DNA of 64,000 nucleotides from a virus (taxonomy: Duplodnaviria > Caudoviricetes). A program made the position numbers and the translations under genes. The notes under the pieces were generated by a model. That model was not told where the DNA came from. It did not search any database and saw only the letters and a program-made list of their open reading frames with translations. The stretch lies in IMG/VR virus record IMGVR_UViG_3300035670_000186, positions 1,829 to 65,828 of that record, one strand, 5' to 3'. Below, one piece after another: positions 18,883 through 61,100 of this stretch (position 1 is the stretch's first letter; each line of letters starts with the position of its first letter).

Positions 18883-21800
18883 TGAGGCTTTCTTCCTATC
18901 GGAATGGTTTTTGTCCTTCGTATATCTATCGGTTTATCGTCCGGTCCGACCCTATCCGTGAAAATGTATCTAAACAAACGAGGGTCCATTATGGCCAGCT
19001 CAAGTCCGCTGGCGCCCTGCTGCAACCTGCCGACCATGACCGGCTTCATGGGGTCTCTTTCGCTGTCGTAAATGTACAGCTCGTCGAAGTACCCACCGCT
19101 CATGAGGTCCGGCAAGATCTGGCTGAGGTTGTTTTGGATCGTTCTGACTATGGTCGGAGCCACGTAGCGACCCGTCCTATTGAATCGTTCTTCGTTTCTC
19201 TTCGCTAGAACCTCGTTCGGAGCGAAGAAATAATGGCCGATTACCTTGTAACCCCTGCCTCTCCAGTCGGTGATGTCTTGGTATCCGTCGTTGAATTGTC
19301 CGCTCGTGTCGTATACGAGGTCTACTCCGTTCTCCGTTGCCATGCGGGCGACAGCGGCGGCAACCGCTCTGGACTCCTGATGGGTAAAGGAAGCCGCATC
19401 TCGCAACCTTTCGGCGAACCAAATACGAGATTCCGGCATAACGATTTTTGCGTCGTCCGGATCGGCGACCATGGCCGTATCGTAATTCGGTATTCCGTTG
19501 AGTCCGTTGTTTCGCGCCGAGCTCTTGCCGGTTGCCGTTGCTCCGCCCAAAATGTAAACGGTCGGTTGTGATTCCGGCTGACCTTTAGAACCTTCGACCG
19601 CTTTTTGCATGCTTCTTTCGACATAAGGCCTCCACAGGTTCTCCACCCTGTCGCGATCGGTCCATTCCCCGAAAAGTTCACCGGACTTGTTCCAGCCCAC
19701 GCCGTAGTGCCTGTCCGTCGGAGCACCGCTGCTCAACTGCGAAGCGGTCATCGTGCTTTGAACGTCCATTAGATCCAGGGATCTGGCTAGCGAATCGTCT
19801 ACGGGGTTTTGATTATTTCCCATTGATGCGGTCGGATCGGAACCGCCGAAGGTCCACTTGCTTCTTGCGGTCCTCGTCCCCCACGGCATCATGGGATGCG
19901 GCATGTCGGTGCTAGAAAGGAACGTTTTTTTCCCGGCCGCCTGGCGAATGGTGTTTATGCGAGCTATTAGGTCTTGGTTTCTCACTCGCGCAGCCCTTGC
20001 GAGCATGGACAAACGGGAGGCTATCGATAACCTTATTTCACCCATAGGATCGCTGTTCGGATCTACTTGCATCATCGCCACGGCGCGACGCAGCCACTCC
20101 GCATGACCGAAAGCAAGTTCGTGTTTGCCGGCGGCTATATCGGAGAGCGGAATCCAATTGGCCGCTCGCGCATCAGATGCGGCGTTGAGATTGGTGTTCC
20201 ACGGAACTACGAACATTCCTCCTCCGACTCTTACTCCGTTGACGAAACGCGGATCCCAGTCCGGAGCCTCTATGGCCCCCATGTATTCGACTTGAAGAGC
20301 GGAATCAAGATCAACGCCCACTTCTTCCATGGTTTCCCGGGTGGCGGTAGTCATCAGTTCTTCGTTGCCGTCCCTAAGTCCGCCGACTAGGGCCATTGCA
20401 TCCGTGTACGGCCCGCTTTTGCGGGATATCATCGCAACTTGAGCGGTGCTGATGTCGCCGTCCATCATTCTTAGTATCACGGAATCCGCGCCTTCGATGA
20501 ATTGATCGTCTTTTCGGTAACTCCAGTCGTTGGTGCTCCAAGATACGTCTTCGTCCGTTCCCGTTCCGAGATTTTTTGAAATATTGAAAGGAGATCTCAG
20601 CGAGCTGAAATCCGCTGCTTTCTCCAACTCCTGACGCGATGCTTTCGGATCTCCGTAGATGCTGGAGTAGTAGTCTTTTTGGCTCAACTTGGGAGAGCGA
20701 GCGTACAGGTCCCTTATCGGCTCCATCATGGATTCGAATCCGTTGCCCATTGACGCGGTCGGTTCGCTTTCCTCGAGTGTCGTTACGTGTTCGTCGTTCC
20801 CGAAATACAGCCGCATGTCGTTGAGGATATTCTCCATTCTGCGACGTTCTCTCGGGTCTACCACCAAGGCATCAGCCCTTCGTACTGCATTGTTTATTGC
20901 TCCAACCAAATCGAACGGCTCTTGGCCCAGCTCTCCGTAAATCAAAACGGAGTTCGTCGGTCTTACGGCGGTCCACGACAACGGGGATTCTCCGCCTCTC
21001 CAGTCGTACTGAGAAATGGTCTTTCGGTCCACCGAGTCGGCGTAAATGTTCATCAATCTTGATACTTCGTCGACCAACTCTCCGTCCGTAGCGTAGGCCG
21101 TTCTGACGGATTCACTCCTGTCGGAGTTGAACCAGGCTTTTTGCGCTATGGCGTTTATTCTGGCTCTTTCGGCCTGCTTGTCGATCGCGTTCATTCGCGA
21201 CCTACCGGACGACATGGAAGCCGTTGGACCCATGTCCCCGGTAACTCTCGCAGAACCAACGGCGCTCATGATCTGGAAAGGTGAGATGCCGGCTTGAGAA
21301 AGCAGGTCACCTACACCGTCGTCGTCGCCATCATGAAGGTTGGGGTCGACTATGGCGACTATTAGGTCGCCCATATCCACGAACTCCATGCCCCTACGCG
21401 AGGCCGCCAAGATGGCGTTTCTCATCGCCTTGGATGCGGCTTTGCTGAAACCGGTAACTTTCTCGGATTCTTTTCCATCCGACGCGTTCAGTGCCGTCAT
21501 CATGGCGTTTTGTAGGGATTCGATCGGTATGTCCAGTTTTCGTAGAGCCTGATTCACGGCTCCAGTTCTGTTTCCGGAAGCTATCCGCCAAGCGCCCAAC
21601 AACAAGTGAGAGGAGTTGAGTTGCTTGTTTCTTCCCTCTTTCGCCTCGTCGTAGCCGTTCACGACAGCCGAAACGGCATCGTTCGTAAAACGACTCATTG
21701 CCATTCTGGTCAGAGAGGACATCGATGCGACCGGTCCGTCCGGCCCGTCGTTGGATGAGGTTAGTTCTCCGTTCCCGGTCGTATCCAGCCATTGTTCGAA

Positions 21801-24800
21801 CGTCGGTAGCATTTTGAGTCTTTGCTGATCGCTCAACAACTGATCCTTGATTGGATCCAAAACCTCTCGTTTGTATCTCCCCAATAGTTGGCGCCTTCTC
21901 TTCGTTCGCTCGGTTGCGGCTACGAACGGAGAAACCTCGGCGATAGCTTCGCCGATGGTCTTAATCGATCCGAACATGCCCGAGTTGATGTATCCGGCGA
22001 ATTCGTCCTGCATCTCGTTTCGTTGTTGTTCCAAGAGTCTTTGATAGGCGTCGTAGAACTCTTGAGTTTTCATTACCTGCTCTAGCTCTAGGTCCTCCCC
22101 TAATTGACGGTTGAGAATGGATTCCATCATGGAGCCGAACTCTTCCGGTCCCATTCCCTCCATGGCGCCTTCGGCAACGGCGACGTCGCCGAATATTGCT
22201 CCCGCTATCGCCGACATGATCGATTGACGTAGTTTCATGCTCGTCATTTCGTTTATTTGCCCGGCATCCTCGAGCTCTTTTAGTAGTCCGCCGAGGGCCA
22301 TCGCTTCGGCTAGGGTTTTGTCGGCCGAGGCGTTCGGACCGTTGACTATCGTGTCCAAAACTCTCATAAAGGAAGAAATTTTTCTGTAGCCGACCGACTG
22401 ATTGCTTCTATATTGGGACAAAATTGCAGAAGCAAGTTGCCCCACTGCGTCGGTTACGCCGATTTTTCTGTCAATGTTCGTCATGGCGACCGCAACCTGC
22501 GGCCTACTTAGCGCCGCTTCTCCGATAACCGTGAAAGGAAGGCCTTCTATCGTCAGAGCCAGCTCTTGAATTGCTTCTTCGAAAGATTTTCCGACGACCG
22601 GATATACGTCGTTCGGATCGTTTACGTTCAGGTACGGGAATATGTTCTTCAATTGATTCAAAACTTCGGGCACCGTTACGGTTCCTTGGGGTATTCCGTT
22701 TACCACTAGACCGAGCCACTCGTCCCACTTCTGAACGTCCGGCGTAGGCCACGAGAGGTCCTTTATGTTTTCTCTTACTTTGTCCAGTATTTGCGTGGGG
22801 GTTATTTCGTCGTCGCCTTCGAATTCTATTTCTGAAAGATCCGACACGTATTGGGCGAACTCTTCCGGCGACATGTTCAGTATTGTTTCGTCGGACAGTT
22901 GTCCGTAGGCTCCGGTCGTCTCCCACCAGTAGCGCCCCGGAGTTTCCGATACGACCTCGTTTATCTTTTCGATCATGTCGTTTTCGTCGTCGGTCAGTTC
23001 GGAAACTTCCGGAATTTGGCCAACGAATTTACCCAAGGAGTCGTTCCATCCCGGCTTGTACGGTCGTTCCGAGCCAGGCCCTGCGTAAACGATGTTCGGG
23101 CCGTACATGGACCAGAAACCGAAAGAGTCGACTCGCGGTCTGGCGTAGGTCAACCAACCCAAGTTGTTGTCTTGGCCCGTGTAAAACGGCGAAGAATATT
23201 CTTCCAATGCCGTTGCTTGAACGGCGCGGCGGTAGAGCGCCGTGGCCAACATGTCAGACATTATTTTCGCCGAAACCATCGCCGAAACGCCGAGCCGTAC
23301 GGACTTGTTGAATTGATTCATGCCGTCCGCTGCGCTCCCGAAATCCTCCATGGGGAGAGCCGAATTAACGAAGTCGTCGGGATTGAGAATTATTTCCTTC
23401 AGTCCTTTGAATATGCTGTCAAAGGCAAAAGCAAAAACTTGATCGTCCATTTCTCTGACGGGAAGCGGATATCGCTCGCCCGGCATCCTGCGAGAACCGG
23501 GTTCGTCGGGAAGATTTAACGGCGCAGATTGCATCACGTTGGTGGGCATCATTTCGCCGAAAGTGTCTATTATCGGCGACATCATGGTGTACATGCCGTA
23601 GGCCCAATTTGCGAGAATCAGTTGGCGAGGCGTTAGTTCGTCGAGTATCTGACGCGCGGAAACGTCGCCTTGCATCGCCCCCGAAAGCAACAACTGCGAG
23701 AACATGGCCTCCCCGGGCATGATGTCAGACAGTTCCGATATGTTGGGAGCTACCGGAAATCCCGTAACCGTAAACTCTATGTCCTGAGACGGGCTTCCGA
23801 TCACCGTGCTTGAACCGGATCCGTACGTAGCCCTGAGTTGGTTGCGTTCGTCCACTGCCGCCATGATCGGTATGAGTCTTGCCAGCACTTTTTCGTCGCC
23901 TTGTTCGAAAAGTGGAGGCGCCGTAGCCAAGTTTGGATTCCGCATCACCTGACGCAATTGCCACAGCTTGAGCCTCAGGTCGTCGTCCATGTCTCTCGGC
24001 AACTCCGGTTCGTCCAAAAATCCGGCTTGAATCATGTCCGCCGTGCTGACCCCCTCTCTCGCGGCGTCGGCGATAGCGAGACCGTCCTCGGGATTTCTGA
24101 AATATCTGTCGTTCGCTCCGAGTAGCATCATCCTGAGCGTCGGCAAAACTCCCCTGAATACTCCGGTCGAATTGAATTCTTTCTTTACGCTGCTCGGCAA
24201 CGCAGTGAGCATGAACAAAGGACTAGCGGGGTTTTCCGATCTCGTGGCTATTTCAAATATCTTGAAATCTTTGCCCGTTAGCGATAGGCGTTCTTCGTCG
24301 GAGGGATCTCCGGCAATCACTATTTCTTTCGGTTCGTATCCGTCTGTTCCGATGTCCCCGAATATCATTCCGATCAGGCGCTCCGCATCGGTCACGTCCC
24401 TGCGAGAGAAATAACCACCCTCGAGTATCAGTGAAGTCCAATCGGACACCGCATCCCTCCACATCGCCATCTTTTTGGCGTTTTTCGGCCCGCCACTAAC
24501 GCTCAACGAAGACTCTTCGTTCGTTCCATCGAATGGATTGCCAACGTATGCGGGGGGATCAATATCGGGCGGAACCGGCGATCCATCCGGCATTTGCGGA
24601 GGATTCGATTTTTCCAACCAGTTTTCCGAAGGTCCGTCCTGCATTCTTGACTCGTCTTTGATTCTCTTGTTCGCCATGGATGCGGTCGGCTCGTCGGAAT
24701 AAGCGTTTTGTACGTATTCGTCGGCTCCAGAAAGAATGGATTCCAGGCTCTGTGAACCGATGCCGTATTTGCGCATCATCGCTCGCTTGGACATGCCGGA

Positions 24801-27800
24801 TTGATAGTCGTTGATTATCGAGTCGGAGTTCTGGGAAATCCACTGAGGCGAACCGACGGCATCCGGAACGACTCCGGCTTTTCGTAGTTCGTGCAATGAA
24901 TTTCTGACGGTATTGGAGTTGATTCCCGTTGCACTGACTATTTGCGGTTCGCCATATCCGGATTGCGCCAATAGGGCCACCGCTTCCTTACGGCTGCGCG
25001 GAGAATTGTTCGACACGTAGTTCGCGGCCGTCTCTTGGTCTATGAAATCCTCTCCAATCGCGTCGTAGAACCTATTGACCGTGCCGTCGTTCAGCAACTG
25101 ATTGACCTGACGCGCAACGAAATATCCGTCATCGCCGAGCGATTCGGCGACCGATTGTTCGTCCATTCCCTCGGACAGCATGCGAACTGCCTCCCCCGAT
25201 CTGTCCCACGTGCTGGCGAGCCAGTAAAAATGCCCCGCATCGATATTCGTCGGAATTGATTCATCTGGCCAAATTTGTTCGGCGGTCTTTCCGAAGGCCT
25301 CTGCCACTCTTCTTGATGCGTTTTTGCTCAGTGCTCCGCCGGCGGCGCGAAGATTGCTAACGAGTTCTTGATCCGTGTTCAAGAACCTCGCCAATGCAGA
25401 GTCCGACATTTCGTAAATTGCCGGTACCGCATCGGCCAAATCGGCGAATGCGTACGCTCCGCTCGATGAGACGTCGGAAGGTCGCAATCCGTTGGACGAA
25501 AACAGCGGACTCATGCCGTCGGATCCGACGAGTTCCCTGCCGAACAAACCGGTAGTCAGTCCGCTTCCCGATATGGCTCTCGCCAATGCTGGGTATGGGC
25601 CGTCTAGGGAGCCGAAATCCTCTATTTGTTTTTGCAACTTCGTCAACTCGTTCGCCACGCCCATTTGACCGAGCGAAACTGTGGCCGCCTCCGACATTAA
25701 CCATCTTTGCCTGTCCCTGTAGGTCATGAAATTCCAGTCGGAAGGCAACGAGGAGGAAAGTTTTGCGATGCGCTTCCTTCTGGACCCGGTCGCGTATACG
25801 AGTTTTGCCACGTCGTCCGAAAGACCGAACGCAGTCGCTATGTTCTCCGCCGACATCGGCATTTGTCGATGAAATCCGATTGCTTCGGTTATGGCGGAAT
25901 TCGCTATGGATAGGTTTTCCGCATCGGGGGTGACCAGATCCATGGCTCCGTCCCCGAACTCCGACAAAAATGGGAATCTATTCAAAGTCATTCTTCTTAC
26001 CGACTCGGGTGAATAGGCGTCGGCGATTCGAGATGCGAACGAGTGGGCTGACCTGAGTGCGGTTCTCGCCCTAGTCAGCAATGTCTCCGTTGCTATGGCG
26101 TCCTCTACGTCTTCTTTGCTTACTCCCAAAATCCTGGAAGCCATGTCCGGGGAGGTGAACAGCACGACGTTGCGAACGTTGTTACTGGCCGACCTGAGCA
26201 TCGTCAGGGCGGCTTCGACGTCGGCTTCGCTTGCCAGGTTCGTGTCCATAGCCTGAGTCAGTCCGTCGTTTACCGCGTCGTATGCGATTCTTCTGGTCAA
26301 GGACGGAAGGGAATCAAGCGCAATATCCGAGAATTTGAGGAATCTTCCTCCCAACTTCGTTCTCGCCAGTGCTTCTGATGCCATGTCGGCGGCCGCGACT
26401 ATGCTCGCCGAATCAACCGATTGCTCCAGAGCTCGGGGCGTTGATACGTCCAGGGTCGGAAGGATGTCCTCGTTTGTCTCGTTTCGAAGGACCGACATGG
26501 CTGTTCTCATGTCGGGGACCGAAACGAACTGCTCTATGTTATTTTCACGACGCATTTTGTTGAGAGATAGAGTTTGTTCTGCGAGTCGTTGCTCGACCGA
26601 ACTCAACAGAGTCCTCTTCGGAGCGGGCTGCTCTCTTTCCGATCCGATCATCGGATATCTCATCGAGCCGATTCCCATGCTTGCCGTAATGTCGTCGGAC
26701 TCCAGACCCGTCGGATCGTTGCGCAACATGTTCAATCCGTTAGAAATTCCCCTGATTTGGTTCATGCGATCGTCCATTTCCGACGTCGTCATGTTCACCG
26801 CATTCTTGATTTCTTCAACTCTGTTGCGCACTTCCTCCATTTGCGAGTAGACGACCTGTCTGGCCCTGTTGGACGCTTGCGCCATTCGCGACAAATCCGC
26901 CGTTTGATTCATCGCCGAAAGCATCGCCGGTTGTATCGCCACGTAGGCGGCCCTAATTCCGTCAACGACTTGTTGCGGCGTCATTCGTCCCGCTTTTAGT
27001 TCGGACATCAAGCGCTTTCGTTCGGCATTGAAACCGCTCGACATTACGGCTACGGCCGATGTGAGGGTTTGAATTCTCGCCCTAATTCTGTCTTGGTAGA
27101 AACGACTCAGTTCTTTAGACTGATTCTCGAGTTGCCTGAGTTGTTGGTCCAGGTCGAAAAGTTCTCCGGCTATGCCGTTTCTATTGTTTTTGTTGATATC
27201 GACCAGCATTGCGACGGTTCGCCGTACCGCCGACTCGTTGAATCGCCTAGCCGCCGCGTCGTTTGCGGAGTCAAGATGGCCCTGCAATGCGGAGGAGCTT
27301 ATGTTGTTGTCTCTGGCATGTTTTCTGAGTCCGGCGATTATCGCATCGGGATGGAAATTGTCTCCGTCGGATGTTTTTTCGATATCGGCTATTTCGTACG
27401 GGTCCAAGAAAGGTGCGGTAGTGAGCGAGGTCCACCATCTCTGCCTTGCGACTTGACTTGCCTTAGCGGTGGAAGAGGCTATTTTTTTCTGCTTTGCCCT
27501 TCGTTCATCGCTGACCTGAACTCTGTTCATGACGTCCGAGTTCGGATAGCTATTCAAGGAGGGGAAACCTGGTTGATCGTCGGGATCGGGCGGCAGAGAC
27601 GCGGCCGCCACTCCTAGTTGCCTGTCGGAAACTTCGTAGGGGAACATATCGGAAATTGCCCGAATGACCCTGTCCAAGTTGAGCGAGGACGGATCGCCCA
27701 TGACTTGGTCTATGATTCCGGGGCCGAATTTTCTAGAATTCTTTTCGTAATGCTCTCCGCCCAATATTCGTGAGTATCTATTGGCCTGCTCCAGCCAGTC

Positions 27801-30800
27801 GCCAAAATCGCCGAATCCGTCCTTCACTTGTCGTATCGTTCTGTCTATTTGTTGAACTATTGGGTGCGTACTCGGATCACCTACGAACTGTTCTTCTTCC
27901 GACTCCAAGGCTTGATCGTCGGTCTGTCGAGCGATCTCCTCGTCTCTTGCTTCGGGGTAATAGACGAGCTTGCCATTCGACAACGATTGGAAATCCCCAA
28001 AACGTATGTCCTGCTCTTCAACCGGATCAAAATCCGGATCGTTGTTCGGATTGGACATTCTGTGAAGCGGCGGTATTTTGCCCAACGACATATGTATCGC
28101 GACCAGTTCTTGCATCGTGGAGAGGAACAGCTTGGCCTCGTCGCTTTGGGCTAGTGCGCCAGGATTCGTCGGATCAAAATCGGCCGGAAAGTCGTAGCCG
28201 GCTCTGGCCAAAGAACGTTTTGTTGCGGCGACGATATCGTCGAATGCTTCCGTGGCTTTTGCGTATTGGCCCGACGATCTCAGTCTTGAGGCGACCAAGG
28301 TCGGCATTCTTCCTCTGCGCGCGTTGAACAGAGCGTCTATTACTAGTCTCGCTTTTATCGCCTCTTTGGCATCGGAAGTTATCGGCCATGCCCCGGTTTC
28401 GGTGTAGGAACCGCTTCGTATCCATCCTTCTATTTCGTTTCCAAAAATGGTGCTGGCATCGGTTTCCGACAATGCATCCAATTTGGATTCTTCGTCCGAC
28501 GGTGGAGTCGGCGGAGCGGGAGCCGCCATGGATGCCGTAATGTCTATTCCGAAAGAGCCCCACAAATCACCGTCATCCGGATCGTCCGTTTCGGTTTGGT
28601 CCCCTTGATAGGGCTGAAAATCGTTGAGCGCAGTTTGGGTGCGGGCTTGCCCGGCGACCCTTTCCAGAACACCCATGTCCGGCCCGGATGGCGATTCCGC
28701 AGTTAGATCGGCCAGCGCCCTCGTAGCGGCCCGATACTGATCGGAGGGAAGAATTTCCCTTCCTCCACTGACGAAATAATCGACGATGTCGCCGTAAATA
28801 ACTTTTTCTTCTGGGTTCAACATGAACATATCGGACGACCTGTCCCCAAAAGCCGCGTCCAAAGCCTCCTCTATCATGGAGGCAAGATTCTCCATCGTTT
28901 CCCCGTTTATCTCCGCCTTCGACAAGCGTCTTGCGAGGTTGTCCAGACGAGCGTCCAACTGTGACTGAGCCGAAAACTGTTGCCTCTCTTCGTAGGATCT
29001 TCTGTCCATGCGTTGAATTATCGACGGAACTATGTAGTTTCGACGCAAATTCTCCAGCTGAAAATCCGACAAGGATTCGATTATTCTTTTTGCGGTTTCG
29101 GCGGTCCCGTCGTAGGAGGCGATTAATTCGTTCAACGACAGTACGGTTTTTTCCGTTTCCGTTTCTTCGGAGATCCTGATCGGCTGATAACCCTTTCCGT
29201 CCGAAGGCAATGCGTCTATCGTTTCCCGCATCAATTTTCTTCCGCCGTCGGCTTGTTCCTTTGCCAAAGTAGCCGCTTTGAACTTACGAAGAGCCATGAC
29301 GGCTGCTTCGTCGAGAGATTTCGGCATCATCGACATGATCGAATTACCGGAGGAATCACTACCGAAAGTCCACAACATTCTCATTGTGTCTTCGGTTGTC
29401 GTTTCCGGACTGGCCAGTATTTCTTCCACCAGTTGCGACGCCAGTTCCGAATCACCGTCGATTGCCGCACGGGCCAATCGTTTCAGCGAATCCGAAAAAT
29501 TCTCTTCGGATTCCAGGATGGCCACTCTGTCCGAGAGCGCTTTGCGCTCTTTCGCATCCAGGGCATGAATTTCTGCGTAGCCGAAAAGATTTCGGACTAT
29601 TCCGGCGAAGTTGACTTTCTTGGCCTCCGCCTCGTACGCTGCTTTTCCGGCCTCGCTTTGTATCGACATTCCATCAAGTCGGGATAGTTGGTCGTCCGTA
29701 AGCGCGTCCACGGCGGACGCCAAGGATTCCGGGTCAAGCGGGCTTATCGCATCCACGTAGGAGAGTTGGTCCATGTGTCCAGCCGTCGGAACCCATTCGA
29801 TGTCCGCTGGCCTCGCCGATATGGTTCGCTTGACTCTCTCCAGGCCCGGCGCAAGTTCTTCCGCTAGGGCCTCCCTTGTCGCCTCTGCCGTTTCGGGGGC
29901 CGATAGCAGTTCGAGTAATTGTCGTCTATCGAGCGAAAGGATCTCCATCGCGGCTTTTGCTTTTGAGGCCGCAGAAGGAAACATATCCAAGTCGGATTGG
30001 GTTATGCGAGGCGGCCATCCGTCCGGAAGCATTTCTTGATACGAAGAAAACCCCGCTCCTTCCAGAATCTCGTATTCCGTTGGGTTGGGATCATCGGGCT
30101 TCCAACCATTTTCGTAGGCGATCACTTTGGCGGCGTTGAGTAATTCTCGCTTGAGTTTACGCAAACGCGGGATTATCGGAAGTTCCTCCACCGGAATTCC
30201 CGTTTCGCTCAACGGCGGGGGCGATATGTCGTCGTCAAGGGATGGCGCCGACGCATCGAAGGCGTCGTTTATTCTGTCGACGAGCGATGCGTATATTTGA
30301 TTGATGGTCGAATCCTCCAGCTTGTTAAGCAACGCCTGAAGAGCTTCTGGACTTCTGGCGATTCGGCCAAGACTCAATGGGTCTCGCTCGTATGTTACGC
30401 CCCTAGACAAAACCGAGAGTATCCCGTTCGGCTTCGACAACTCGATCAAAATATTTCTGCGAGCGGAAGCCAACTTCATCAAATCGTCGCGCGCTTCGTC
30501 TATCGACGAAACTCTTCCCAGTTCCAGCAATTCTCTTTGCTTTAAAACTCTTTCTTTGATTTCCGCCAACTGAACGCTCCAGGGCTTTTCTTCCGGACCG
30601 GCCATGGATACGACGGGACCATCCGACAAAGCGGCGACGTACCTGTCCTGAAACTGCGGGAACTTGTCCTCCAGAATGGCTTTGATCGCGTCGTTGGTTA
30701 CGTATTCGCCGTTTAGCACCGAATCGGCTATCTGTTCGTCTCTGCTGCGACCGTCGTTTTTGAGGGAAAAAGAACGGATGTCGGCTATGAAGCCGTCCAA

Positions 30801-47215: not shown

Positions 47216-47218
47216 CTG

Positions 47219-50080
47219 TCACCCATCGTCCACTGCGGATCCGTCCACGATCCTCCGACCACCCAGCGATCCTGCGCCGCCGCCGCGCCTAGGTCCCATT
47301 CCCCTGAGTCGCATCACTTCGTCTTGGCCGACAACTTTCGCCAAAAAGGTCATGAATTGACCCTCGGTCAGCCCGTATATATTTCTTTCGTCGTCGGCCA
47401 GAAAAGCCCTAATGTCCGACAAGGCACCCGGGGTGGCCAATCTCGTTCTCAATTCCGCCATGAATTCCCAGTCGTTCTCCGAAGAATACATTCCGCCTAT
47501 GAAACTCATCAACAACGAAGACGCTGCGTTTTCTAGCCTGACTCCTCCGTCGGGTCGCAGCGGGGTTTCTTCGGAAGTCGGGTCTACACCGACGTTTCTC
47601 GGCTCAGGTGGCCCGAAAGCACCGGTTGCCGGATCAAAAACCCCCGTGGGGGTGTCCACCATGTCCGCCCAAAACTCAAGTTGAGGAAATCCACTTTCTT
47701 CGCTATAACCACGCGATTCCAAATTATCCATTATTTCCTTGAGTTTTGCTTCCGAACCGGCTCTTGTGAATCCTCTCGATCTCATCCATCTCACGTATTC
47801 CTGGGCGACGTTTCCGTCGAAACGCACGTTTTTCATGTAAAAATTCCAAAGAGCTTCTTGTTTTTTTATTTCGTCTGTTGCGGCTGCGAGTTCTAAATCC
47901 AATTCATCTATTTGGCGTCGCAGGAAAGTTCCTTCTTTTGCATCGGTTCTCAAATTGATCGGACCGAGACCCTCCATGATGGGAGATCCGTCTTCGTCGT
48001 ACGCCGGAGATCCGTCCGGGTTGAGTTTTTGTCTACGATACTGCGATCTGAGTCGTTCTTTCCATTCTTCCTCGTTGGTGAAACCGAGTTTTTGTCCGAG
48101 CCGCCACGCAAAGTCGTCCACGTGCGCAATCTCGTGACTCGCCGTGTGGGCGAGGAAAGCGTCGCCGTCCTTGTCGAGATCCATCCCTAGGTGGTCCGAC
48201 CCCATTCTGTCCATTTCTTCGCGGAGTCTTCCTTTTCCTGCGAGTAATTGTGGATTCAACGAGATGGAGTAATGAAACGGCATACCGCTTCCCGAGCGAC
48301 CCTGCGCCGCGAGCCCGTCCGCGACGAAAGACGGTGCACCGTTTTCTTTTATTTTGGAAAGCGGAGTAAGACCCCTATCGCCCAAGCTTTCCGGCCCCAA
48401 TCCCCGCGGTCCTTCGGTCAAATTACTTTGGTCTCCGAAAAAACTATTGACGGAGGTGTAGATCAAATCTTTTGCATTCGGTCCGTCGTTCTCGTGCCCG
48501 ATGCGAAGATAGCCCGGCACGGAAGATGCTATCCGTGTTCCGTGTTCGGGATTGTCCGGACTGGCGTCGCCTCCGTTTCCTCGCATCTGCCATATGAGTT
48601 GCTGAATCACATTGTCCAAATTTTCTTTGATGGTGTTTCTCGTCGTCGTTCTTTCGTAATCGTCTATGAAACCGGCGATGCGTTCATCGTTTAGTGCTTC
48701 CTCTATCATCGCATCATACCGATTCGTGTCGGTGGGGCTCAGGCGACTCGGACCTATCGGGATTTCACCGATTCTTTCTTCTACCCAGTTTTGGGATTCG
48801 AGTCCGAATATTCCTCCGTCCGACGGCACGTCTATTCCGAGGGATCTGGCCCATTCCGAATACACGAGAGCCTGCGGAGGTGGGTAGCCGTTCTCCAGCT
48901 CGAATCGCATTTTGTAGCTTTCGGCGAAGCTCATGTACGAGTCCCTAGCCGATTGCGCCTCTCTCTTCTTTTGCTTGGCTCGCTGCTTTCTCTCGTTTCT
49001 GTTGGCGAGAGACACGGTTATCATTTCCCTGAAGCGAGCGGAAAAACGTCCGGCCGAATCCGAACGCATGGATGCGACGGGCTCGTAGGGATCGTAGCTT
49101 CTATCCGGGTCGTCTATGGTTACTTTTGCGGTAACGTAACCTGCGGCCGGACGAGAACTGCCAAGCCATTCGCGCATCCTTCCCCCGCTACCGGCCGCTC
49201 TATCCGTCGCTCGATCGACTCGTTCTTGCGCCCTGTCGGTTCTCCCTGTCGCCTGGCGGGCCGATCTTGCGGCGTCCCCGGCGGATTCAGTGGCCCTGCC
49301 AACCGTTCGTCTGGCCGATGATGCGGCTTCGTCAACGGGTCCAGGTATGTCGCAACCAGTTCCGAATGCGTCGGTGAATCTATTGGCGGCCGCGGTTCCG
49401 GGGCCGCAACGAATTTTATTGAGTTTGTCCCTCCACAAACCGCGAGCAGAAAGGATGGCGTCCTGTATGTTCTCGCCCATGTCTCGAATTTCGCGACCGA
49501 GCAAGCCTTTCTTGTTTATGTCGTTCTTGTTCTTTTTTTGTTCCGCCATCGGATTCTTTGCGGGAAGCCCCATTGCGGCCAGTACGGTTTCCACTAGGTG
49601 ATCCGTGGATATTCCTTCGTTGGAGTCGGAAACCTCGGCCCCGGACATTCCTGTACACAGGTGAAGAGGCCTGTATCCCGGCGGATATTGCGGTAACGGG
49701 TCGCCCTGTTTGTATTTTTTCGCCCAGTCGGTGAACTCCTTGGGCAAAAGTTTTATGAAATTGGACATTGGGTTTTGGTCCAATTCCTCATTTTCTGGAT
49801 CGGGTTTTCTCGCCGACTGCTTGGACCCGACCTGCTTGTTGGTCGGTTTGATTTTGGATCTTTTATTGAACATGTATTCCATTACTCGCCTGTCGGCCCA
49901 CTCCCCGTTATGTCCGTCGGTTTGATCACCAGAATACGGAAACTGATTGAAGAATGTTTGTTTCGTCTGTTGGTCGACCGTAAGTAGCGAACCGTCCCTC
50001 AGCTTGAACACGGACTTGTCGCCGTATCGCGCGACGATCTGAGCGTTCAATGGTATTTGATCAAAATGGTGCGACATCAA
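47219..50080 (-). CDS. 953-aa protein: RC-x-RFTD-x-C motif, PVASM motif, zincin-like motif
   Basis: HEIAH at 48122-48136 plus distal EFMAE; TATAAT upstream at 50134-50139; exact start uncertain. Confidence 0.82.
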   Translation of the reverse strand: MMSHHFDQIPLNAQIVARYGDKSVFKLRDGSLLTVDQQTKQTFFNQFPYSGDQTDGHNGEWADRRVMEYMFNKRSKIKPTNKQVGSKQSARKPDPENEELDQNPMSNFIKLLPKEFTDWAKKYKQGDPLPQYPPGYRPLHLCTGMSGAEVSDSNEGISTDHLVETVLAAMGLPAKNPMAEQKKNKNDINKKGLLGREIRDMGENIQDAILSARGLWRDKLNKIRCGPGTAAANRFTDAFGTGCDIPGPVDEAASSARRTVGRATESAGDAARSARQATGRTDRAQERVDRATDRAAGSGGRMREWLGSSRPAAGYVTAKVTIDDPDRSYDPYEPVASMRSDSAGRFSARFREMITVSLANRNERKQRAKQKKREAQSARDSYMSFAESYKMRFELENGYPPPQALVYSEWARSLGIDVPSDGGIFGLESQNWVEERIGEIPIGPSRLSPTDTNRYDAMIEEALNDERIAGFIDDYERTTTRNTIKENLDNVIQQLIWQMRGNGGDASPDNPEHGTRIASSVPGYLRIGHENDGPNAKDLIYTSVNSFFGDQSNLTEGPRGLGPESLGDRGLTPLSKIKENGAPSFVADGLAAQGRSGSGMPFHYSISLNPQLLAGKGRLREEMDRMGSDHLGMDLDKDGDAFLAHTASHEIAHVDDFAWRLGQKLGFTNEEEWKERLRSQYRRQKLNPDGSPAYDEDGSPIMEGLGPINLRTDAKEGTFLRRQIDELDLELAAATDEIKKQEALWNFYMKNVRFDGNVAQEYVRWMRSRGFTRAGSEAKLKEIMDNLESRGYSEESGFPQLEFWADMVDTPTGVFDPATGAFGPPEPRNVGVDPTSEETPLRPDGGVRLENAASSLLMSFIGGMYSSENDWEFMAELRTRLATPGALSDIRAFLADDERNIYGLTEGQFMTFLAKVVGQDEVMRLRGMGPRRGGGAGSLGGRRIVDGSAVDDG

Positions 50081-50329: not shown

Positions 50330-53300
50330 CTCCTGTTGGGGTTGACCGAATAGGTCCCGGTCGATTCGTCGTACTCCATGGTCGCTCCCGTGTCGGGGTC
50401 TATGTAGCGCCTAACGCCGGCGAAAGAACCGTTCCCGAAGGGCCACAACCATTTCGGAACCATAGCGCCAGGAACGGAAAGAAAAATCGTGGATTTCGGC
50501 ATTTTGGGATCTTTGTTCCACCCTGCGGAAGGCCACGGATCGATGGCGACAGGCAGGTACGAGCGAAGCTTGGACAGCTCGGTTTCACCGAAACCCTGCA
50601 ACAATTCTCCAAATAGTTTTTCGTATCTGGGGTCGGAAGACGAACGATCGAGAATCATCGCCACCCTAGAGACTATTTCCTGTCTTACGGCGTCCGCTCT
50701 TTCGGCCTCGCTTTTGCCGAGTTTTTTCATTTGTTCATTGATTACGTTCATCCAAAAATTCGAATTCGTGTTCATGCCAGTGTAGAAAATGTCGCCCCAG
50801 GAGTCGTACATTTCCCACGGACCGCGGAACGATGCATACTCGCCGTGCCTAGTGAAGCCCTGCCCAAGATATGCGTGAAAAAATTCGTGAGCCGGTATCT
50901 CGGGTGATTCCGGGCCCTCGAGATATATCAACGGTGCGTACCCGGAAACGGTCGCATGATGAGCAAGATTCAAAGCCGAGTTGAGAACCGTTCCGGAACC
51001 GCCTGAAATGTTGAGTCCGGCGTTTCTCCAGTGCGTTTCGATGGCGGATCGAATCTGGTCGGGACTCAAGCCAGCGTCGGTTGACATCGTCTCCACGACG
51101 GCCCTGCCCCAACGGGAGGCGAAGTCCCTCCAATCGTTCAGAAAATTCTGTATGTTGGAAATAACCGCTCTCGCCGTGGGGGCGAACGGGCTTGATTCAT
51201 CGACGGAAATCCGAGAAAAGTCGATCGGGTTGTAATCGAGGCCTTTTGAGATTGCATCTCTGTCTATGCTGGATATTCCGGTTGCATCCAACAACAGATC
51301 CATGAATGAAGGTTTACCCGATCCGTCGTAAAGGCCGAGAAGATTCAGCCCCATCACCTCAACCCGACTTCTTGAATCGTCCCCCCGACTATCGTACGTC
51401 CAAAGCCTTCGCTCCGATCCGGGTAACGGTCGACCTCCGAATATGTGTCCGATCACCGACTGTATGTCGTCGGTTTCCGCAGTGGCCATCAACTTCGCCA
51501 TTCCTATGGCGTTTGCCGCGAATATGTCCATCAGCTCGTCGTAGGTGGGATAGGCGGTGGATATAGCTTTGTCGACGATGTCCCTTCCGGCTATTCTGTC
51601 GGCCAGCTCAAAAAACACGGGTCCTTGAACTTTCGGTATGGAATGACCCTCGGTTTCGTACGCCCCCAGTCCCGCTCTCCTGGCCGCCGACGCAAATGCC
51701 GAGACTTTTTCCGGCGAATACGAACCGAATTCTTCGTTCATTACCCTCGGTCCGTTCAGAAAGGTGGCCAAATTGTTCTCCGATTCTCCCGCGACTATGG
51801 ACCCGTGGAGGCCCGATTTTTCCTTCGGGGAAACGGATCTGTCGGATCCGGGCAGCAACAAGGGTTTGTCACCGAAATTTTGCAAAGACTCAACCGTCCT
51901 CAGTGAATCTGAGGACATGGATGCGGTGACATCGTCGGACGACCTCCGACTTATCCTCCGGGACAAACGTCCTGTTCTTTCCGATACGACGTCCGATGAA
52001 CGAATGGTGTTTCCCGAATCCAGGAACTCGTTGATGCGGGCGGCGGTTCTTTCGTCGGATTTCGGGTTGACCGTCAAGGATTGATTATCGTCCCCGAAAC
52101 GAGTTCTTCCCGCCTCGAGTTTTTTTACCGCAGATCTCAGTAGTTTCGCCGCAAGTTTTTGACGAGAGGCAAAAGAGGCCGGTGCGGCTCGCCCCGTTTG
52201 CCTCGTGGCCAAAACCGAGGCTATTCCATCTATCGGCGTTAAATCCGTAAAATACATTTCGGCGACCATGAATTCGTCGTCGGTGAGTTTTGGAAACCAA
52301 TCCGTAACCTCCTCCCTACGCATCGCCACAAGGGACGAGTATTGATTGTCCGTTAAATCGAACAACTGTTTTATTTTTCTTTCCGTCAATCCCCTGCGTC
52401 GCATCATGGATATTTCGTCCGCGATCAGGTTTTTTAGCGCATCGCGCCTCTCCGTCGGAGTGACCAATCCGGCCTTTCTATGGGCTATGTTGAGTCTCCT
52501 TCTCGCTTCGCTCGGCGTGGTTCTCAAAGCCGTCGCAATCGTTTCGATCGCCATTCCCGAATCAAAGGCTTCCAAAAGCGTTTTGTCCAAATCCGTCAAG
52601 CGAACTGAAGGGGAGTCGGATTCTCCGACCGACAGCATCGCCCGCCTGCGCGCCGCAACCGGAACGGGCCTCAAGTGATCCGGTATCCCGGTTGGAGTAG
52701 AGAAACCTAGGGCTTCGTAAACGTTTTCGTTCATGGACGTTCTGGCGTCTCGGTAGCTGACCGATACGGCCATGGTATTTGTGCCGAGTTTTTCGGCGAT
52801 TTCGCTCATTCTCATTTGCCCTGACTCGTAGTCAAGAACCAATTCGACGTCTTCCTTTGTCAGTTTCTTTTTCTTCTTTGCCGGCAAAGTTCCGCGCCTA
52901 CGCCTAGCCATGGAGGCGGTCGGATCGTCAAGAGTAAAATCAGAATCCAACAAGTCGGGATTCTCCAATACCTCCACCAATGTTTGTATCGTGGATATGT
53001 CGTCTTCGTAGAAATTGTGTTGATCGAGTATGTCCGTGAGCGCATAAGCAGTTTCCGACCTATCCACCCCCAATCCGTCGCCCGCAGAGGCTGGTAGCAG
53101 GGTTCCGGCAAAGGACAGCAAATCGGATATGTCAAGTCTGTCGTCTCGCCTGATGTCCAAATACGGATAACTCAAGTCGTCGTCCTCAACCGACTCTCCG
53201 AGCAAAGTGGCCAACTCGTCGGCGGCTTTCAGGACCGGATCCGAAAAAATTTCGTAATCATCGTAGGAATCCAGTAAGACATTTTCGTCGTCGGGCAATG

Positions 53301-54330
53301 CGCGAGCCGTGGTCGAATAGTTCGATGATTCGAATAGTCTCGGATACGGATCAGTGCTCGGAAAAACGGGCCCGTAAGTTCTCTCGTACGAACTGTCCAA
53401 TGGCGGAACGTCTTCGATGGTCCCGGGGGCCGACCAATATTTCTTGTGGTTGAAGTTGATTCCGGCTTCGGAAAGCGATTGTTGCATCAACTTCAACGAC
53501 TCAAATTCGTCTTCCAACCCGAGTATTTGCGCAGATCTGGTCATTTTCCAAATTCTGGTTGGATAAGCCTTCCGCCAGTCCTGTCCCCCGTCCCAATCCA
53601 TATCATCGACGAATTTTCTTTCGTAAAGGGACCATCCGAGAGCCTCTGCTTGGATTTTTATTTCATCGGCCACCGAGTCCAAGAATGATTGATTTTGTTT
53701 CAAGCGCCCCAGCGGTTCGCCGGCGATGCTGTAGAACTCTCCGTACGCGGCGCTTCCTCGGTCTATCGGATAAGCCCACCAGTCGTAGTGACCGTTGTGT
53801 ATGTCGTTCCATTTTCCGGCGTCCGCCATTTCCTCGTGTATTTGGAGTTGTTCGGCTTGATCGAATATGATCGCCTCGTCTCCTCCGTATACGTCTCTTT
53901 TCGGAGCCGGTGTTGGCTGTGTGGATTGATCGGGTTTTTCCGGCTCTCGAGTACTGGGTTTCCGCAAGCGAGAGGCCAAGTTCCTGAATCGTCGCTCCAA
54001 TCTGCCCGTTTCGCTCGGGTCCCTTGTCGCCTGGGTCGATTCCGGTTTGTCGGCGGTCGGTTTTTCGTTTCCGTAACGACCGCCGCTTATTCTTCTCAAG
54101 ACCCTCCTGACCGCACCTCGGTTCGCAGGGGAATTACCCGATCCGAACGGCGTTGGGTCCGGAACTCCCCGACCCAAATTCACGGTCGGAATTCCCTCCA
54201 ACACGATTCTGTCGAGGTCGGCGTCCACCGCCGTGGTGGGGTCCATGTTTCTTCCGCCGTCCCCGCCGACGGTTGGGCCGAGTGCTTTTACCTCGGCTTT
54301 ATCGGAGCGGAAGGCATCGAGGTTTTCCAC
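50326..54330 (-). CDS. 1334-aa protein: leader, OGFr-like domain, HTH array, HExxH domain, separated by PTASM/VTASM
   Basis: HNGHYDWWAYP; LT..D.....Y...M...EIA..LG-type repeats; HEFFH...GF...GE. Confidence 0.85.
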   Translation of the reverse strand: MENLDAFRSDKAEVKALGPTVGGDGGRNMDPTTAVDADLDRIVLEGIPTVNLGRGVPDPTPFGSGNSPANRGAVRRVLRRISGGRYGNEKPTADKPESTQATRDPSETGRLERRFRNLASRLRKPSTREPEKPDQSTQPTPAPKRDVYGGDEAIIFDQAEQLQIHEEMADAGKWNDIHNGHYDWWAYPIDRGSAAYGEFYSIAGEPLGRLKQNQSFLDSVADEIKIQAEALGWSLYERKFVDDMDWDGGQDWRKAYPTRIWKMTRSAQILGLEDEFESLKLMQQSLSEAGINFNHKKYWSAPGTIEDVPPLDSSYERTYGPVFPSTDPYPRLFESSNYSTTARALPDDENVLLDSYDDYEIFSDPVLKAADELATLLGESVEDDDLSYPYLDIRRDDRLDISDLLSFAGTLLPASAGDGLGVDRSETAYALTDILDQHNFYEDDISTIQTLVEVLENPDLLDSDFTLDDPTASMARRRRGTLPAKKKKKLTKEDVELVLDYESGQMRMSEIAEKLGTNTMAVSVSYRDARTSMNENVYEALGFSTPTGIPDHLRPVPVAARRRAMLSVGESDSPSVRLTDLDKTLLEAFDSGMAIETIATALRTTPSEARRRLNIAHRKAGLVTPTERRDALKNLIADEISMMRRRGLTERKIKQLFDLTDNQYSSLVAMRREEVTDWFPKLTDDEFMVAEMYFTDLTPIDGIASVLATRQTGRAAPASFASRQKLAAKLLRSAVKKLEAGRTRFGDDNQSLTVNPKSDERTAARINEFLDSGNTIRSSDVVSERTGRLSRRISRRSSDDVTASMSSDSLRTVESLQNFGDKPLLLPGSDRSVSPKEKSGLHGSIVAGESENNLATFLNGPRVMNEEFGSYSPEKVSAFASAARRAGLGAYETEGHSIPKVQGPVFFELADRIAGRDIVDKAISTAYPTYDELMDIFAANAIGMAKLMATAETDDIQSVIGHIFGGRPLPGSERRLWTYDSRGDDSRSRVEVMGLNLLGLYDGSGKPSFMDLLLDATGISSIDRDAISKGLDYNPIDFSRISVDESSPFAPTARAVISNIQNFLNDWRDFASRWGRAVVETMSTDAGLSPDQIRSAIETHWRNAGLNISGGSGTVLNSALNLAHHATVSGYAPLIYLEGPESPEIPAHEFFHAYLGQGFTRHGEYASFRGPWEMYDSWGDIFYTGMNTNSNFWMNVINEQMKKLGKSEAERADAVRQEIVSRVAMILDRSSSDPRYEKLFGELLQGFGETELSKLRSYLPVAIDPWPSAGWNKDPKMPKSTIFLSVPGAMVPKWLWPFGNGSFAGVRRYIDPDTGATMEYDESTGTYSVNPNRR

Positions 54331-54342
54331 CTCGAATCACCC

Positions 54343-56326: not shown

Positions 56327-56339
56327 TAATCAGTTGACT

Positions 56340-58100: not shown

Positions 58101-58158
58101 GATTCCTCCAATTGTAGGTCAGGATCAAATGATAAAAAGAAAGTTTCCATATAGCTAT

Positions 58159-61100
58159 TTAACTTCGCCTACTACGCTGGCGACCCATGGGCAATCGCGA
58201 GACTATGCGAGAAAGATTCGTTTTGAATCTGGCACCTTCCAGCCTGTTCAAGTTGTAATTTCCCGTATTTTGACCCATTCCGTCCGCTTTCGCCGATTCG
58301 AGCATTTCTTTGGCCCTGTCGCTTGACACGAGGCCCAAAGATACGGCGTTTACGAGAAAAGCCGCCGACGCCCTGGATCCGCCCATTTTCATCATTTCAA
58401 GGGCTCCCGAGTCGACCAGGAAATCCACATCACGGGATGCTGATTTCAGCTCGTTTGCCATATCCAAAATTTTCGCAGCTTGCTTCACGATCGGTCTGGT
58501 TTGTGCGTTTTGTATGTAGTCGTCGACGGCGACGTTCACCCTGTCGTTCACCGTTTTGCCGATTGAATTGAAATTTCGTTGATCGATGTCGGATGCATTT
58601 CGCCCTCTTGCTGCCCCATTGATTTGCGCATTGGCGAAATCGCTGACGAACGATTCGAATCTTCTTGAATCGGCGTCCGCCGCCCACCTCTCGGGCCGGT
58701 CGTACGACGAAGGGGGGCGATTCTCGTCGTATCCGTAAGTTGACAATCCGCCCGGAAGATTGTAGAAAGGTAGTCCTCTTTCCCCACTCGAAGAAGATTC
58801 TCTGTTTTTGCCGCTCCTGGTGGAATTCCACGATTCCAAAATGTTCGCCATTTCGGGATTTTCGCTGGACAGGCGATCGCGCAATTGATTGTAGAAGTAG
58901 TTTCTTCTTCTCTGTAATTTGTACAGGTGATTTACCAGAGATTCGATTTCTCTTGCTTTGTTTTCCGTTCCCGACGGGTTGGTCTGGCTCCGCTTGGCCA
59001 AATACTCGAGTCTGCCCATCACCGTGTCCAATGACGCATCAGACGCGACCCACCCTTCCATTAGCTGCTGTGGCGATGCGTAGTTGGCCGACGGATAAGG
59101 CAACGATGCCCTGCCGTTTCTGTAATTGGACACCGCCGCCGAGACCTGATCCCGAGTTACCATGGCGCCGAATCGACGAGCTTCGTCGTTCGGGATTCGC
59201 AAAGTGGAGGGGAGGGCGGACGACATTCCGGCCGTCGGGTCGTCCGATCCGAACGGATTGAAAGACCTGTCGCCTCTGTCCATTTTCTTTGCCCCGCGAA
59301 GAGCCTGCAACCTGTCCCTGAACACCCTGCTCGATATTGCGTTTCTATTCGCCGTATCGATGATCACCCATCCGCCGTCGTGGGGTTTGATGTCGTAACG
59401 AGGAGGAATGAAATTACGACGACCCATGGCCGCGGTCGGTTCGTCCGGTGTTTCTTCCCCGTAGTACTCCGCCATGCGCTTCATTGCTTCGGAAGGTGTT
59501 TCTCCGAAAAACCCTATGTATGGTCCGCCCATTGATTCAATCATGGACGAACTCATCGGCCTACCGTTGAGATCCGTGAGCATGTCCTCGTTTCTCATCG
59601 TCGCTTGCGCCAGCCAATCCGAAAAACCTTCTCCGAGTTCTTTTTTCTTGTCGTCTAGCAATCTCCTGAATGCGTTTCTTCGTCGCATCATGTTCATTTC
59701 CTCTACCCGGGCGTAGGGGTCCATGGCCGCCAACCTGCGGATCGTCGCCGTGTTTCGGCCTCTGTCCACGTATTCTTCTACGGCGCTTGGAGAAAGACCC
59801 GTTATCCCGGAAAGTCTCGCGAATATTCCCGTCGCCCCGCGTGCATCGAAGTCGCTCGCCCTAGTCGGTTCGAAGGCGTCACTGGTGAAATCGCCGGTTC
59901 TTACGGCCACTTCGACCATTTCGTCGTGGCCGAGCATCATTGCGTAGTGATATATGTCGACCAAATCGTCGTCGCTCGGATCGTTCCAGTTTCTGGACGG
60001 CAAATCGTCGAACCTCGCCCCTATCCTTCTGGCGACGGTCTCGTATTTATCATCTCCGTAAATCTCAAACAAACGCGTATCCAGCCATGCTGATCCGCTT
60101 ATTATCGGCAAATCGGGCTGTTCGGAAGACATGCTCGCAGTTGGCCCGTCGGAAATTATCTGCGCTATCGCCGCTTTGCCTTCGTCCGACTCGAAATACC
60201 TGCGCCTTATTTCCGAAGATATGTTGGATATGCGATTTTTTACCGAATCGGCTTTTACTTTGAATTCCGCCGAATCGTATCTTCCATCCCGCTCGAACCC
60301 GAACAACTCGTCGACTGCCTCGTTGAACTCCCGTATCAGATCTTGCAAGTTCATTGACGAGTAGTTGTCTCGCACCGACATGGCGGCCGTGGGACCCATC
60401 TCGTCCGAAGACGTCATGCGACCGAAATTGTTCGAAATTCTCGCCGCCGTTTGCAAGTTCGCATCTTCCGGAATGACGAAACCGAGGGACGACGGCGACA
60501 CAGAACCATCGGAAATTCGTGCGTAAAGTTCCGCCAACCTGTCGTTTGACATTGCGTTTCGATAGGTTTCCAAGTCGTGCGAGGATAGCCTCGCTCTCAG
60601 TTCGTTTTCCTTCATGCCTGTTACGCGCGAAAGAGCTCGGATCGCATTTCCCCTTCTGTTGGATGCGATGATTGAATTGAAAGCGCTTGATATAGAGGCA
60701 TTTTTTGCGAGCTCGACTCTCCTCGCGGAACCGACCGCCGGAATCGCGTAACCAGATTCCGCCGAGAACGTGGGAACCTCGAGCGAGCCCTCCAATCTGT
60801 ATCCGGCTTCGTCCACCGTCGCCCTGAGGCCGCTATCGTCAACGGGGTCGGAGGACCTGACCCGCATTGTTCTGTTGGCAGCGGCGATCGCATCGAGATG
60901 GGCGATGGCTTCGGAATTGCGCGATGGCCCGGCCCTGAATGCGGTTTCGAATCTACGCCTCGACTCTCGAGCCACCAAAGCCACTTGATCGGTCGACATG
61001 TCCGAAAACATCCTGTCGTTTTCGCCGTACTGCCAATACGAGAATGGGTTTTCCACTCCGTCCCGATTGGTTAAACCGGACATTGAGCCCGTCGGTCCGT

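Follow-up and report, generated by a model that had tools for sequence, protein, structure and literature searches.

The HK97 prohead protease, gp4, is a small stand-alone enzyme that co-assembles into the procapsid, removes the scaffolding (delta) domain of the capsid protein and digests itself, while proteases of the T4 gp21 type cut after Glu. For the related SPN3US enzyme gp245, mass spectrometry placed 14 cleavage sites across nine substrates, with the removed parts being mostly N-terminal propeptides of 20-254 residues, according to the part of that report covered here (PMC10052503). The polyvalent proteins described by Iyer, Burroughs, Anand, de Souza and Aravind in 2017 are giant, multi-domain proteins predicted to be packaged and injected, for which processing by embedded peptidases was proposed; in the sections covered here, zincin metallopeptidases (MPTases) were put forward as the main processors, and assemblin-like peptidases, of limited distribution, were found 'always at the C termini' (PMC5512222). 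The main text of the same paper, to the extent covered here, defines no cleavage or linker motif, and contains the word 'linker' 0 times (PMC5512222). This work describes a locus within a window of 64,000 nucleotides, comprising positions 1829-65828 of the 65.8-kb linear viral record IMGVR_UViG_3300035670_000186 (44% complete according to CheckV), in which a short peptide typified by PTASM recurs at the joints between modules of six giant open reading frames (ORFs). The comparisons below suggest that this peptide is probably the inter-module cutting signal of head-packaged cargo polyproteins, read by the HK97-type (Peptidase_S78) prohead protease of the phage.

The joint consensus is (D/E/G)-P-(T/V)-(A/G)-(S/A/G)-Met-(S/A/G), with 21 copies across the six giant ORFs, all on the minus strand. 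An earlier note, made from the sequence alone, had listed these copies, and each stands at the residue it gave, with end coordinates of 19821 and 61095 exact; the five in the last ORF are renumbered here within a 1946-amino acid (aa) open frame, in which residues 973, 1207, 1290, 1525 and 1592 correspond to 954, 1188, 1271, 1506 and 1573 of the earlier numbering. A weak 22nd copy, in a 577-aa protein, had not been listed, and is doubtful as a genuine site. The enrichment over shuffled sequence that the note had anticipated was evident with each of three patterns across 2000 shuffles of the six ORFs (12,225 aa): the strict form, [DEG][PIV][TV][AG][SAG]M[SAGRT], occurs 18 times against a shuffle mean of 0.025; the core, P[TV]A[SA]M, 12 times against a mean of 0.029; and a loose pattern 21 times against a mean of 1.26 and a maximum of 8, with none of these counts matched by any of the shuffles. 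When the window was translated in six frames, the minus-strand frames yielded 18 strict matches, each located within a giant ORF, and the three plus-strand frames yielded 0. Synonymous codons vary among the copies at Thr (ACG/ACC/ACT), Ala (GCA/GCC/GCG/GCT) and Ser (TCC/TCA/TCG/AGC), and such free third positions mean that selection acts at the peptide level, as the note had concluded.

The joints persist in related genomes, although the peptide that marks them is rewritten. The 427 capsid relatives in IMG/VR were reduced to 80 retained loci (1.37 Mb), in which the strict motif of the window had 5 matches. Seeking a recurring Met + small residue peptide within each locus revealed that lineages have dialects of their own: (D/E)AGM at loci L004, L016, L056 and L059; GP(I/V)GKM and PTGRM at L005 and L006; ISG(R/K)M at L019, L035 and L037; and ITG(A/S)M at L061. 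These peptides occupy positions orthologous to the sites in the window. The closest long relative, G001 (117 kb), is syntenic with the window gene for gene, with the giant ORFs mapping to its portal-to-capsid interval, and contains 22 copies of (D/E)AGM within giant ORFs and 2 weak ones elsewhere; 18 of the 22 window sites have an aligned Met + small joint in this genome, written there as E-A-G-M. At the four C-terminal joints of the 5254-aa protein, the Met is kept in all 16 giant orthologues (41-100% identity), while the residues before it follow lineage (PTASM, EAGM/SAGM, SASM or (S/D)(D/E)(S/T)GxM). Sites that change together within each genome, yet stay in place, are expected if one co-evolving partner reads them. 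The profile of column conservation around the sites is supportive but modest, with the Met column at 0.86 against a mean of 0.43, and a dip with more gaps at positions -10 to -6.

Structure prediction places the sites between folded modules. An AlphaFold2 model of residues 4250-5254 of the 5254-aa protein, built with 14 orthologues, had a mean predicted local distance difference test (pLDDT) score of 72, and its four longest segments with pLDDT<50 span model residues 41-58, 220-233, 368-385 and 673-698. The motif Mets are model residues 59, 228, 383 and 692, such that three fall inside these segments and the other directly after the first. In a second model, of residues 440-1400, all four sites, including one with Ile in place of Met, were within pLDDT<50 segments. 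Hence each of the eight modelled sites is inside a low-confidence linker or immediately follows one, and none is buried; motifs buried in folded domains would, according to the earlier note, have counted against its reading. The last four segments of the 5254-aa protein (18879-21734, minus strand) correspond to a ClpC-N-like domain, a 155-aa module of unknown type, a NUDIX hydrolase and a zeta/AvrRxo1-like kinase; Foldseek with the first model returned the ClpC1 N-domain (TMt 0.83), NUDIX proteins (NadM/NudC-like) and kinases of the zeta/PezT/AvrRxo1 type, in agreement with Pfam. Their combination suggests that host Clp adaptor binding, and NAD or nucleotide-sugar metabolism, may be targets of interference.

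The genomic setting is that of virion proteins. The product of the gene directly downstream of the six giant ORFs is an HK97-fold major capsid protein, which matches Pfam Phage_capsid (E=1.2e-44) and HK97 structures, and aligns with HK97 gp5. Hence the cluster is part of the head module, a location echoed by its synteny with the portal-to-capsid interval of G001, where the cluster begins directly after the portal gene; proximity to such virion genes is also a feature of polyvalent proteins. Pfam and PHROGs searches of all large ORFs identified few domains. The 5254-aa ORF contains Clp_N, NUDIX, Zeta_toxin and HTH; the 1946-aa ORF contains RNase_T; and the 1334-aa ORF contains a D5-like module. 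Several unrelated enzymatic or effector domains are combined in one polypeptide, which is the property by which Iyer et al. (2017) recognised polyvalent proteins.

The candidate enzyme emerges from the relatives. No recognisable protease was found by Pfam and PHROGs in the large ORFs of the window, and a search of the window's own incomplete record for PF04586 (Peptidase_S78, the HK97-type prohead protease) gave 0 matches. The same family was found in all four of the relatives' records searched. In G001, the S78 domain forms the N-terminal end of a 4580-aa ORF; this ORF begins directly after the portal gene, and its C-terminal part is, by synteny, the orthologue of the window's 1946-aa ORF. 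The protein P0022, of 4073 aa, is written in the PTASM dialect, and its residues 2109-4073 are 65% identical to the 1946-aa ORF; it consists of an N-terminal S78 domain, a scaffold-like part, a leader shared with other giant ORFs, a Pro-rich linker, and then 9 PTASM-type sites. Since a protein this similar has an N-terminal S78 domain, the window phage very probably encodes the same protease just beyond the contig end, judging from this alignment.

This arrangement is widespread. A search that used the first 740 residues of the G001 polyprotein as query found at least 209 proteins of 2517-8012 aa, and dialects were counted in the 120 listed. At least six linker copies of at least one of three types were present in 111 of these 120 S78-headed giants, against 2 of 120 shuffled sequences. 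By type, at least six copies of [AG]xM[SAGT] were found in 18 of the listed proteins, of G[LFM][ARS]S in 54, and of [LF]SSG in 49. Most S78-headed giants (P0035-P0136) use the Leu/Phe dialects r-G-L-A-S-r, r-[LF]-S-S-G and G-[LFM]-R-S, with 9-15 copies in example proteins, and upstream residues that are basic instead of acidic. Their cargo, which we take from Pfam accessions, includes ArdC-N, UvrD-type helicase, sigma region 4 and pentapeptide-repeat domains. In the eight N-termini compared, which cover the Met, Leu and Phe dialects, the S78 domain looks nearly invariant by eye. Across relatives, the one constant position is the anchor, which is Met, Leu or Phe and precedes Ser, Ala, Arg or Gly. 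PTASM is, on this comparison, one lineage's dialect of a family-wide code consisting of Met, Leu or Phe and then a small residue.

Because the anchor alone is invariant, and is Leu or Phe in proteins with a near-identical S78 domain, we infer that the scissile bond follows the Met rather than preceding it, making Met the P1 residue and the small residue P1'. The earlier note had proposed a protease site that is cut before the Met. That interpretation is partly supported: the conserved joints, the S78-headed orthologue and the linkers speak for one recognition peptide dividing the precursors, but a cut before the Met appears less likely than one directly after it.

The favoured explanation can be set out as a pathway. 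The giant proteins would be made whole and taken into the procapsid, a step that the N-terminal leader present on most of them may direct. Inside, the S78 prohead protease, as the presumed cutting enzyme, would cleave after the Met at each joint, releasing about 27 domain-sized proteins from the six ORFs of the window, among them the ClpC-N-like domain, the NUDIX hydrolase, the zeta/AvrRxo1-like kinase and a DnaQ-like exonuclease. At infection, these products would exit the capsid together with the DNA. A broader proposal, which we hold tentatively and at slightly less than even confidence, is that a large uncultured clade of phages with genomes of about 150 kb devotes approximately 40% of the genome to capsid cargo polyproteins, with one near-invariant HK97-type protease reading Met, Leu or Phe plus a small residue in disordered linkers, while individual lineages rewrite the flanks genome-wide.

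Several observations weigh against cleavage by the S78 enzyme, or against the code itself. Firstly, if one protease performed both jobs, the capsid protein would be expected to share the code, and it visibly does not: a search of its sequence found no copy of the motif, as the earlier note had also remarked. The position before its conserved (S/T)(I/L/V)G..F..S.EFK block is Lys in most relatives, and otherwise R, M, Y, Q, E or G; it is Met in the window and a few others, without tracking dialect. Secondly, four of the 22 window sites are unconserved in G001 (the Ile copy at 5254:862, 1846:326, 1946:1207 and the copy in the 577-aa protein). Thirdly, the clarity of the code varies among relatives, with just 3-4 weak candidates at L021 and L017. 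Fourthly, a de novo statistic, based on the commonest residue pair at -3/-2 for each anchor, ranked Met top in only 4 of 25 distinct loci; this measure was swamped by low-complexity runs, and was therefore set aside as insensitive. Fifthly, the second structural model was poor (mean pLDDT 57.7), and has long low-confidence stretches without sites as well as with them. Finally, three cargo modules with HExxH motifs (HEFGH, HEIAH and HEFFH) could be processing metallopeptidases of the kind proposed for polyvalent proteins, as far as that proposal is set out in the part of the paper covered here (PMC5512222).

Two approaches to the site rule were discarded. The capsid maturation site was sought by alignment and solved structures, with the HK97 alignment putting the HK97 cut near window residue 150, and a candidate at residue 104, in which PRAM would be separated from the following T, was only a guess and was excluded from the evidence. 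Separately, the N-arm block NGANM of the capsid protein is invariant in nearly all 80 relatives (L004-L083 alignment). Gordonia phage Gray and Brevibacterium phage Cantare were rejected as guides, as the capsid protein alone is common to them and the window by local tblastn; no PTASM-type motif was found in the stretches of these phages that were searched (41 kb and 29 kb, respectively).

The HExxH modules lead to the first rival explanation, that the joints are cut by another enzyme, either a zincin-like cargo module, working inside the capsid or once ejected, or a protease of the host. The motifs in the 892-, 953- and 1334-aa ORFs are conserved in their G001 orthologues, many S78-headed relatives carry PF18818 and PF08401, and the capsid protein has no visible joint code. 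Zincin-like MPTase domains were, moreover, the processors proposed for polyvalent proteins in the sections of that work covered here (PMC5512222). Against this, none of the three modules has a Pfam peptidase match, even at E<=5, and homologues of each were found in just one of the four relatives' records and in none of the three complete genomes, one of which (G003) has a clear ITG(A/S)M code, although these searches may miss diverged zincins; the S78 domain was present in all four records. We consider cleavage by a different enzyme unlikely.

The second rival is that the peptide is an uncut flexible linker, or a docking tag for the capsid interior, scaffold or a chaperone, with the giant proteins acting whole. 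The predicted disorder at the sites would fit any linker function, and uncut delivery is reported for the virion RNA polymerase of N4 and for some plasmid polyvalent proteins, in the part of the source covered here (PMC5512222). Yet a passive linker needs neither an invariant Met nor the concerted, genome-wide rewriting of the four preceding residues. Such rewriting fits one co-evolving partner, which could also be a binder instead of a protease, and this explanation is likewise improbable rather than negligible.

Genes for proteases and scaffolds that are nested through internal starts are known in other phages. It is nevertheless very improbable that the joint Mets are internal translation starts, or start-codon relics of gene fusions, with the modules made separately: a Met and small residue resemble a natural N-terminus, and some relatives encode the zeta-like kinase separately, as a gene of about 550 aa, but no Shine-Dalgarno-like sequence was found 5-12 nt before any of the 22 ATGs (in line with the earlier note, which had disfavoured internal starts on this ground), the five upstream residues are conserved at the peptide level with free third codon positions, of the 16 instances of [DEG]P[TV][AG][SAG]x, 15 finish with Met and one with Ile, and none with the Val or Leu that GTG or TTG starts would allow, the Ile copy (codon ATA) is kept in P0002-P0004, and the anchor in relatives is Leu or Phe, the codons for the latter being unable to start translation.

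The earlier note had also pointed to jumbo actinophages as the relatives to search. Complete relatives are 148-169 kb, which does not fit the first part of this description, and an actinobacterial host is at most hinted at by the capsid protein, the best cultured relatives of which are those of Gordonia and Brevibacterium phages, at 46-48% identity. The minus strand carries every large ORF between 15.3 and 64 kb. In transcription order, these are the 1946-aa frame, cut by the contig end, followed by ORFs of 586, 596, 1334, 953, 892, 188, 685, 1846, 150, 284 and 5254 aa, after which come the major capsid gene and the gene for the 577-aa Arg-rich protein (Table 1).

Table 1. Giant ORFs, motif sites, leader copies and HExxH motifs in the window, with the major capsid gene.
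Feature	Coordinates	Strand	Details
Giant ORF, 1946 aa	58159..63999	-	5 motif sites; DnaQ/RNase_T exonuclease module; 5' end cut by contig end
Giant ORF, 1334 aa	50326..54330	-	2 motif sites; N-terminal leader; D5-like module; HEFFH motif
Giant ORF, 953 aa	47219..50080	-	1 motif site; HEIAH motif
Giant ORF, 892 aa	44537..47215	-	1 motif site (PFGSM); N-terminal leader; HEFGH motif
Giant ORF, 1846 aa	35989..41529	-	1 motif site without G001 counterpart; leader
Giant ORF, 5254 aa	18879..34643	-	11 motif sites, giving 12 segments
HK97-fold major capsid protein	17215..18570	-	Directly downstream of 5254-aa ORF
PVAAM	33117..33131	-	5254 aa, 505-509; G001 aligned place EPMAAM; pLDDT<50 segment
PTGAM	32562..32576	-	5254 aa, 690-694; pLDDT<50 segment
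PVASI (Ile copy)	32058..32072	-	5254 aa, 858-862; without G001 counterpart; pLDDT<50 segment
PVVSM	30603..30617	-	5254 aa, 1343-1347; pLDDT<50 segment
ITASM	28527..28541	-	5254 aa, 2035-2039
ITASM	26676..26690	-	5254 aa, 2652-2656
PTASM	24675..24689	-	5254 aa, 3319-3323
PVASM	21720..21734	-	5254 aa, 4304-4308; just before ClpC-N-like module
PTASM	21213..21227	-	5254 aa, 4473-4477
PTASM	20748..20762	-	5254 aa, 4628-4632; before NUDIX module
PTASM	19821..19835	-	5254 aa, 4937-4941; before zeta-like kinase module
PTASM	40552..40566	-	1846 aa, 322-326; without conservation in G001
PFGSM	46844..46858	-	892 aa, 120-124; G001 aligned place GPMAAM
PVASM	49067..49081	-	953 aa, 334-338
PTASM	52909..52923	-	1334 aa, 470-474
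VTASM	51916..51930	-	1334 aa, 801-805
PTGSM	61081..61095	-	1946-aa frame, 969-973
PTAAM	60379..60393	-	1946-aa frame, 1203-1207; kept in P0022, not in G001
PTASM	60130..60144	-	1946-aa frame, 1286-1290
PTAAM	59425..59439	-	1946-aa frame, 1521-1525
PTAGM	59224..59238	-	1946-aa frame, 1588-1592
PTAAM (TPTAAMA), weak extra copy	16293..16307	-	577-aa Arg-rich protein, 246-250; fails strict pattern; without G001 conservation
Leader copy	34194..34292	-	5254-aa ORF, about aa 118-150
Leader copy	40747..40842	-	1846-aa ORF, about aa 230-261
Leader copy	46988..47086	-	892-aa ORF, about aa 44-76
Leader copy	54148..54246	-	1334-aa ORF, about aa 29-61
HExxH motif HEFGH	45875..45889	-	892-aa ORF; conserved in G001 orthologue
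HExxH motif HEIAH	48122..48136	-	953-aa ORF; conserved in G001 orthologue
HExxH motif HEFFH	50875..50889	-	1334-aa ORF; conserved in G001 orthologue

A leader of about 33 aa, N-x-(N/D)-P-x-T-A-x-D-A-D-L-D-R-I-V-L-E-G-x-P-x-x-N-x-G-R-G-x-P-D-P-T-P, is common to four of the giant ORFs. In G001 and P0022, this element stands after the protease-scaffold part and before the first joint. It possibly serves as a capsid-targeting element, by which each polyprotein would be brought into the procapsid. Several relatives have, upstream of the capsid gene, a protein that consists of a conserved N-terminal part and the zeta-like kinase only (546-806 aa), and compared with these, the 5254-aa protein appears to have been expanded by the insertion of modules behind a single leader. 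The 577-aa (15309-17042, minus strand) and 586-aa (56340-58100, minus strand) proteins have in common a DxDxDG-like element, DMIDRDGDGxIFDGTP, followed by long Arg-rich repeats (NEERRQxGMRP...), and some relatives have a similar element, DGDNDGxxQDG, ahead of a stand-alone zeta-like kinase. The element could represent another type of leader, or the two proteins could be DNA-condensing internal proteins. The 596-aa protein (54343-56133, minus strand), which is 73% identical to its G001 counterpart, contains an extremely acidic stretch of about 150 aa, rich in Met, Asp and Glu, and two repeats of A(W/F)(P/G)R.K..E.A..HI..RA.AL at its C-terminus; it is possibly a scaffold or head-internal protein.

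Should the joints be cut, the window alone would supply about 27 separate proteins for delivery with the DNA, and relatives would deliver more. The long-standing question of how, and by which enzyme, polyvalent phage proteins are processed would become testable, as each joint is an explicit, mutable site and a candidate enzyme is defined. Were the broader proposal true, this would be an evolvable cleavage language, in which modules are free to be gained, lost or exchanged behind a single targeting leader, and it would represent the clearest known polyprotein strategy in a double-stranded DNA (dsDNA) phage, with a ready-made means of loading arbitrary proteins into capsids. Lineage-specific rewriting at every joint would be a natural experiment in the co-evolution of a protease and its substrates, and the combination of leader and joint points to an easy route for packing proteins of choice into phage capsids. 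For annotation, giant hypothetical proteins of this type may be better read as strings of separate products.

Word searches of the open-access literature found no description of a Met-anchored or PTASM-type linker code, or of S78-headed polyproteins, but the locus resembles several described systems in part. Like RNA-virus polyproteins, such as those processed by picornavirus 3C or found in astroviruses, each giant ORF would yield one product divided by a viral protease at a short site repeated at domain borders; this analogy is functional only, as the host of the code is a dsDNA tailed phage, the protease fold is unrelated, and the products would be virion cargo instead of replication machinery. 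The protease in the relatives belongs, by PF04586, to the same family as HK97 gp4 (MEROPS S78), and the capsid protein of the window aligns with HK97 gp5, whereas the sources compared describe neither cargo polyproteins nor a Met-type site rule for gp4. The closest likeness in content is to polyvalent proteins, which are similarly encoded beside portal and capsid genes and have zeta-like kinase, NUDIX and HTH domains in common with the window, and ArdC-N and MPTase domains in common with its relatives, as far as that survey is covered here (PMC5512222). However, the assemblin-like peptidases of that survey are C-terminal, in the sections covered (PMC5512222), whereas the S78 domain is N-terminal in at least 209 proteins.

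In mechanism, the proposed processing is most similar to head maturation in T4, phiKZ and SPN3US, in which packaged proteins with a propeptide or targeting part (IPI-III and Alt for T4 gp21, and the substrates of gp245 in phiKZ and SPN3US) are cut in the procapsid at a short consensus, and the genes lie, as here, in the head module. In those phages, each substrate is one protein losing its propeptide, whereas the joints described here, 21 in the window, separate unrelated modules within proteins that range from 900 to more than 5000 aa. The T4 and SPN3US proteases are of the gp21 type, whereas the candidate here is an HK97-type S78 enzyme, fused to the first polyprotein in relatives. The proposed system differs from those of T4 and SPN3US in its site as well, the anchor being Met, or Leu or Phe in relatives, within a peptide that each lineage has rewritten.

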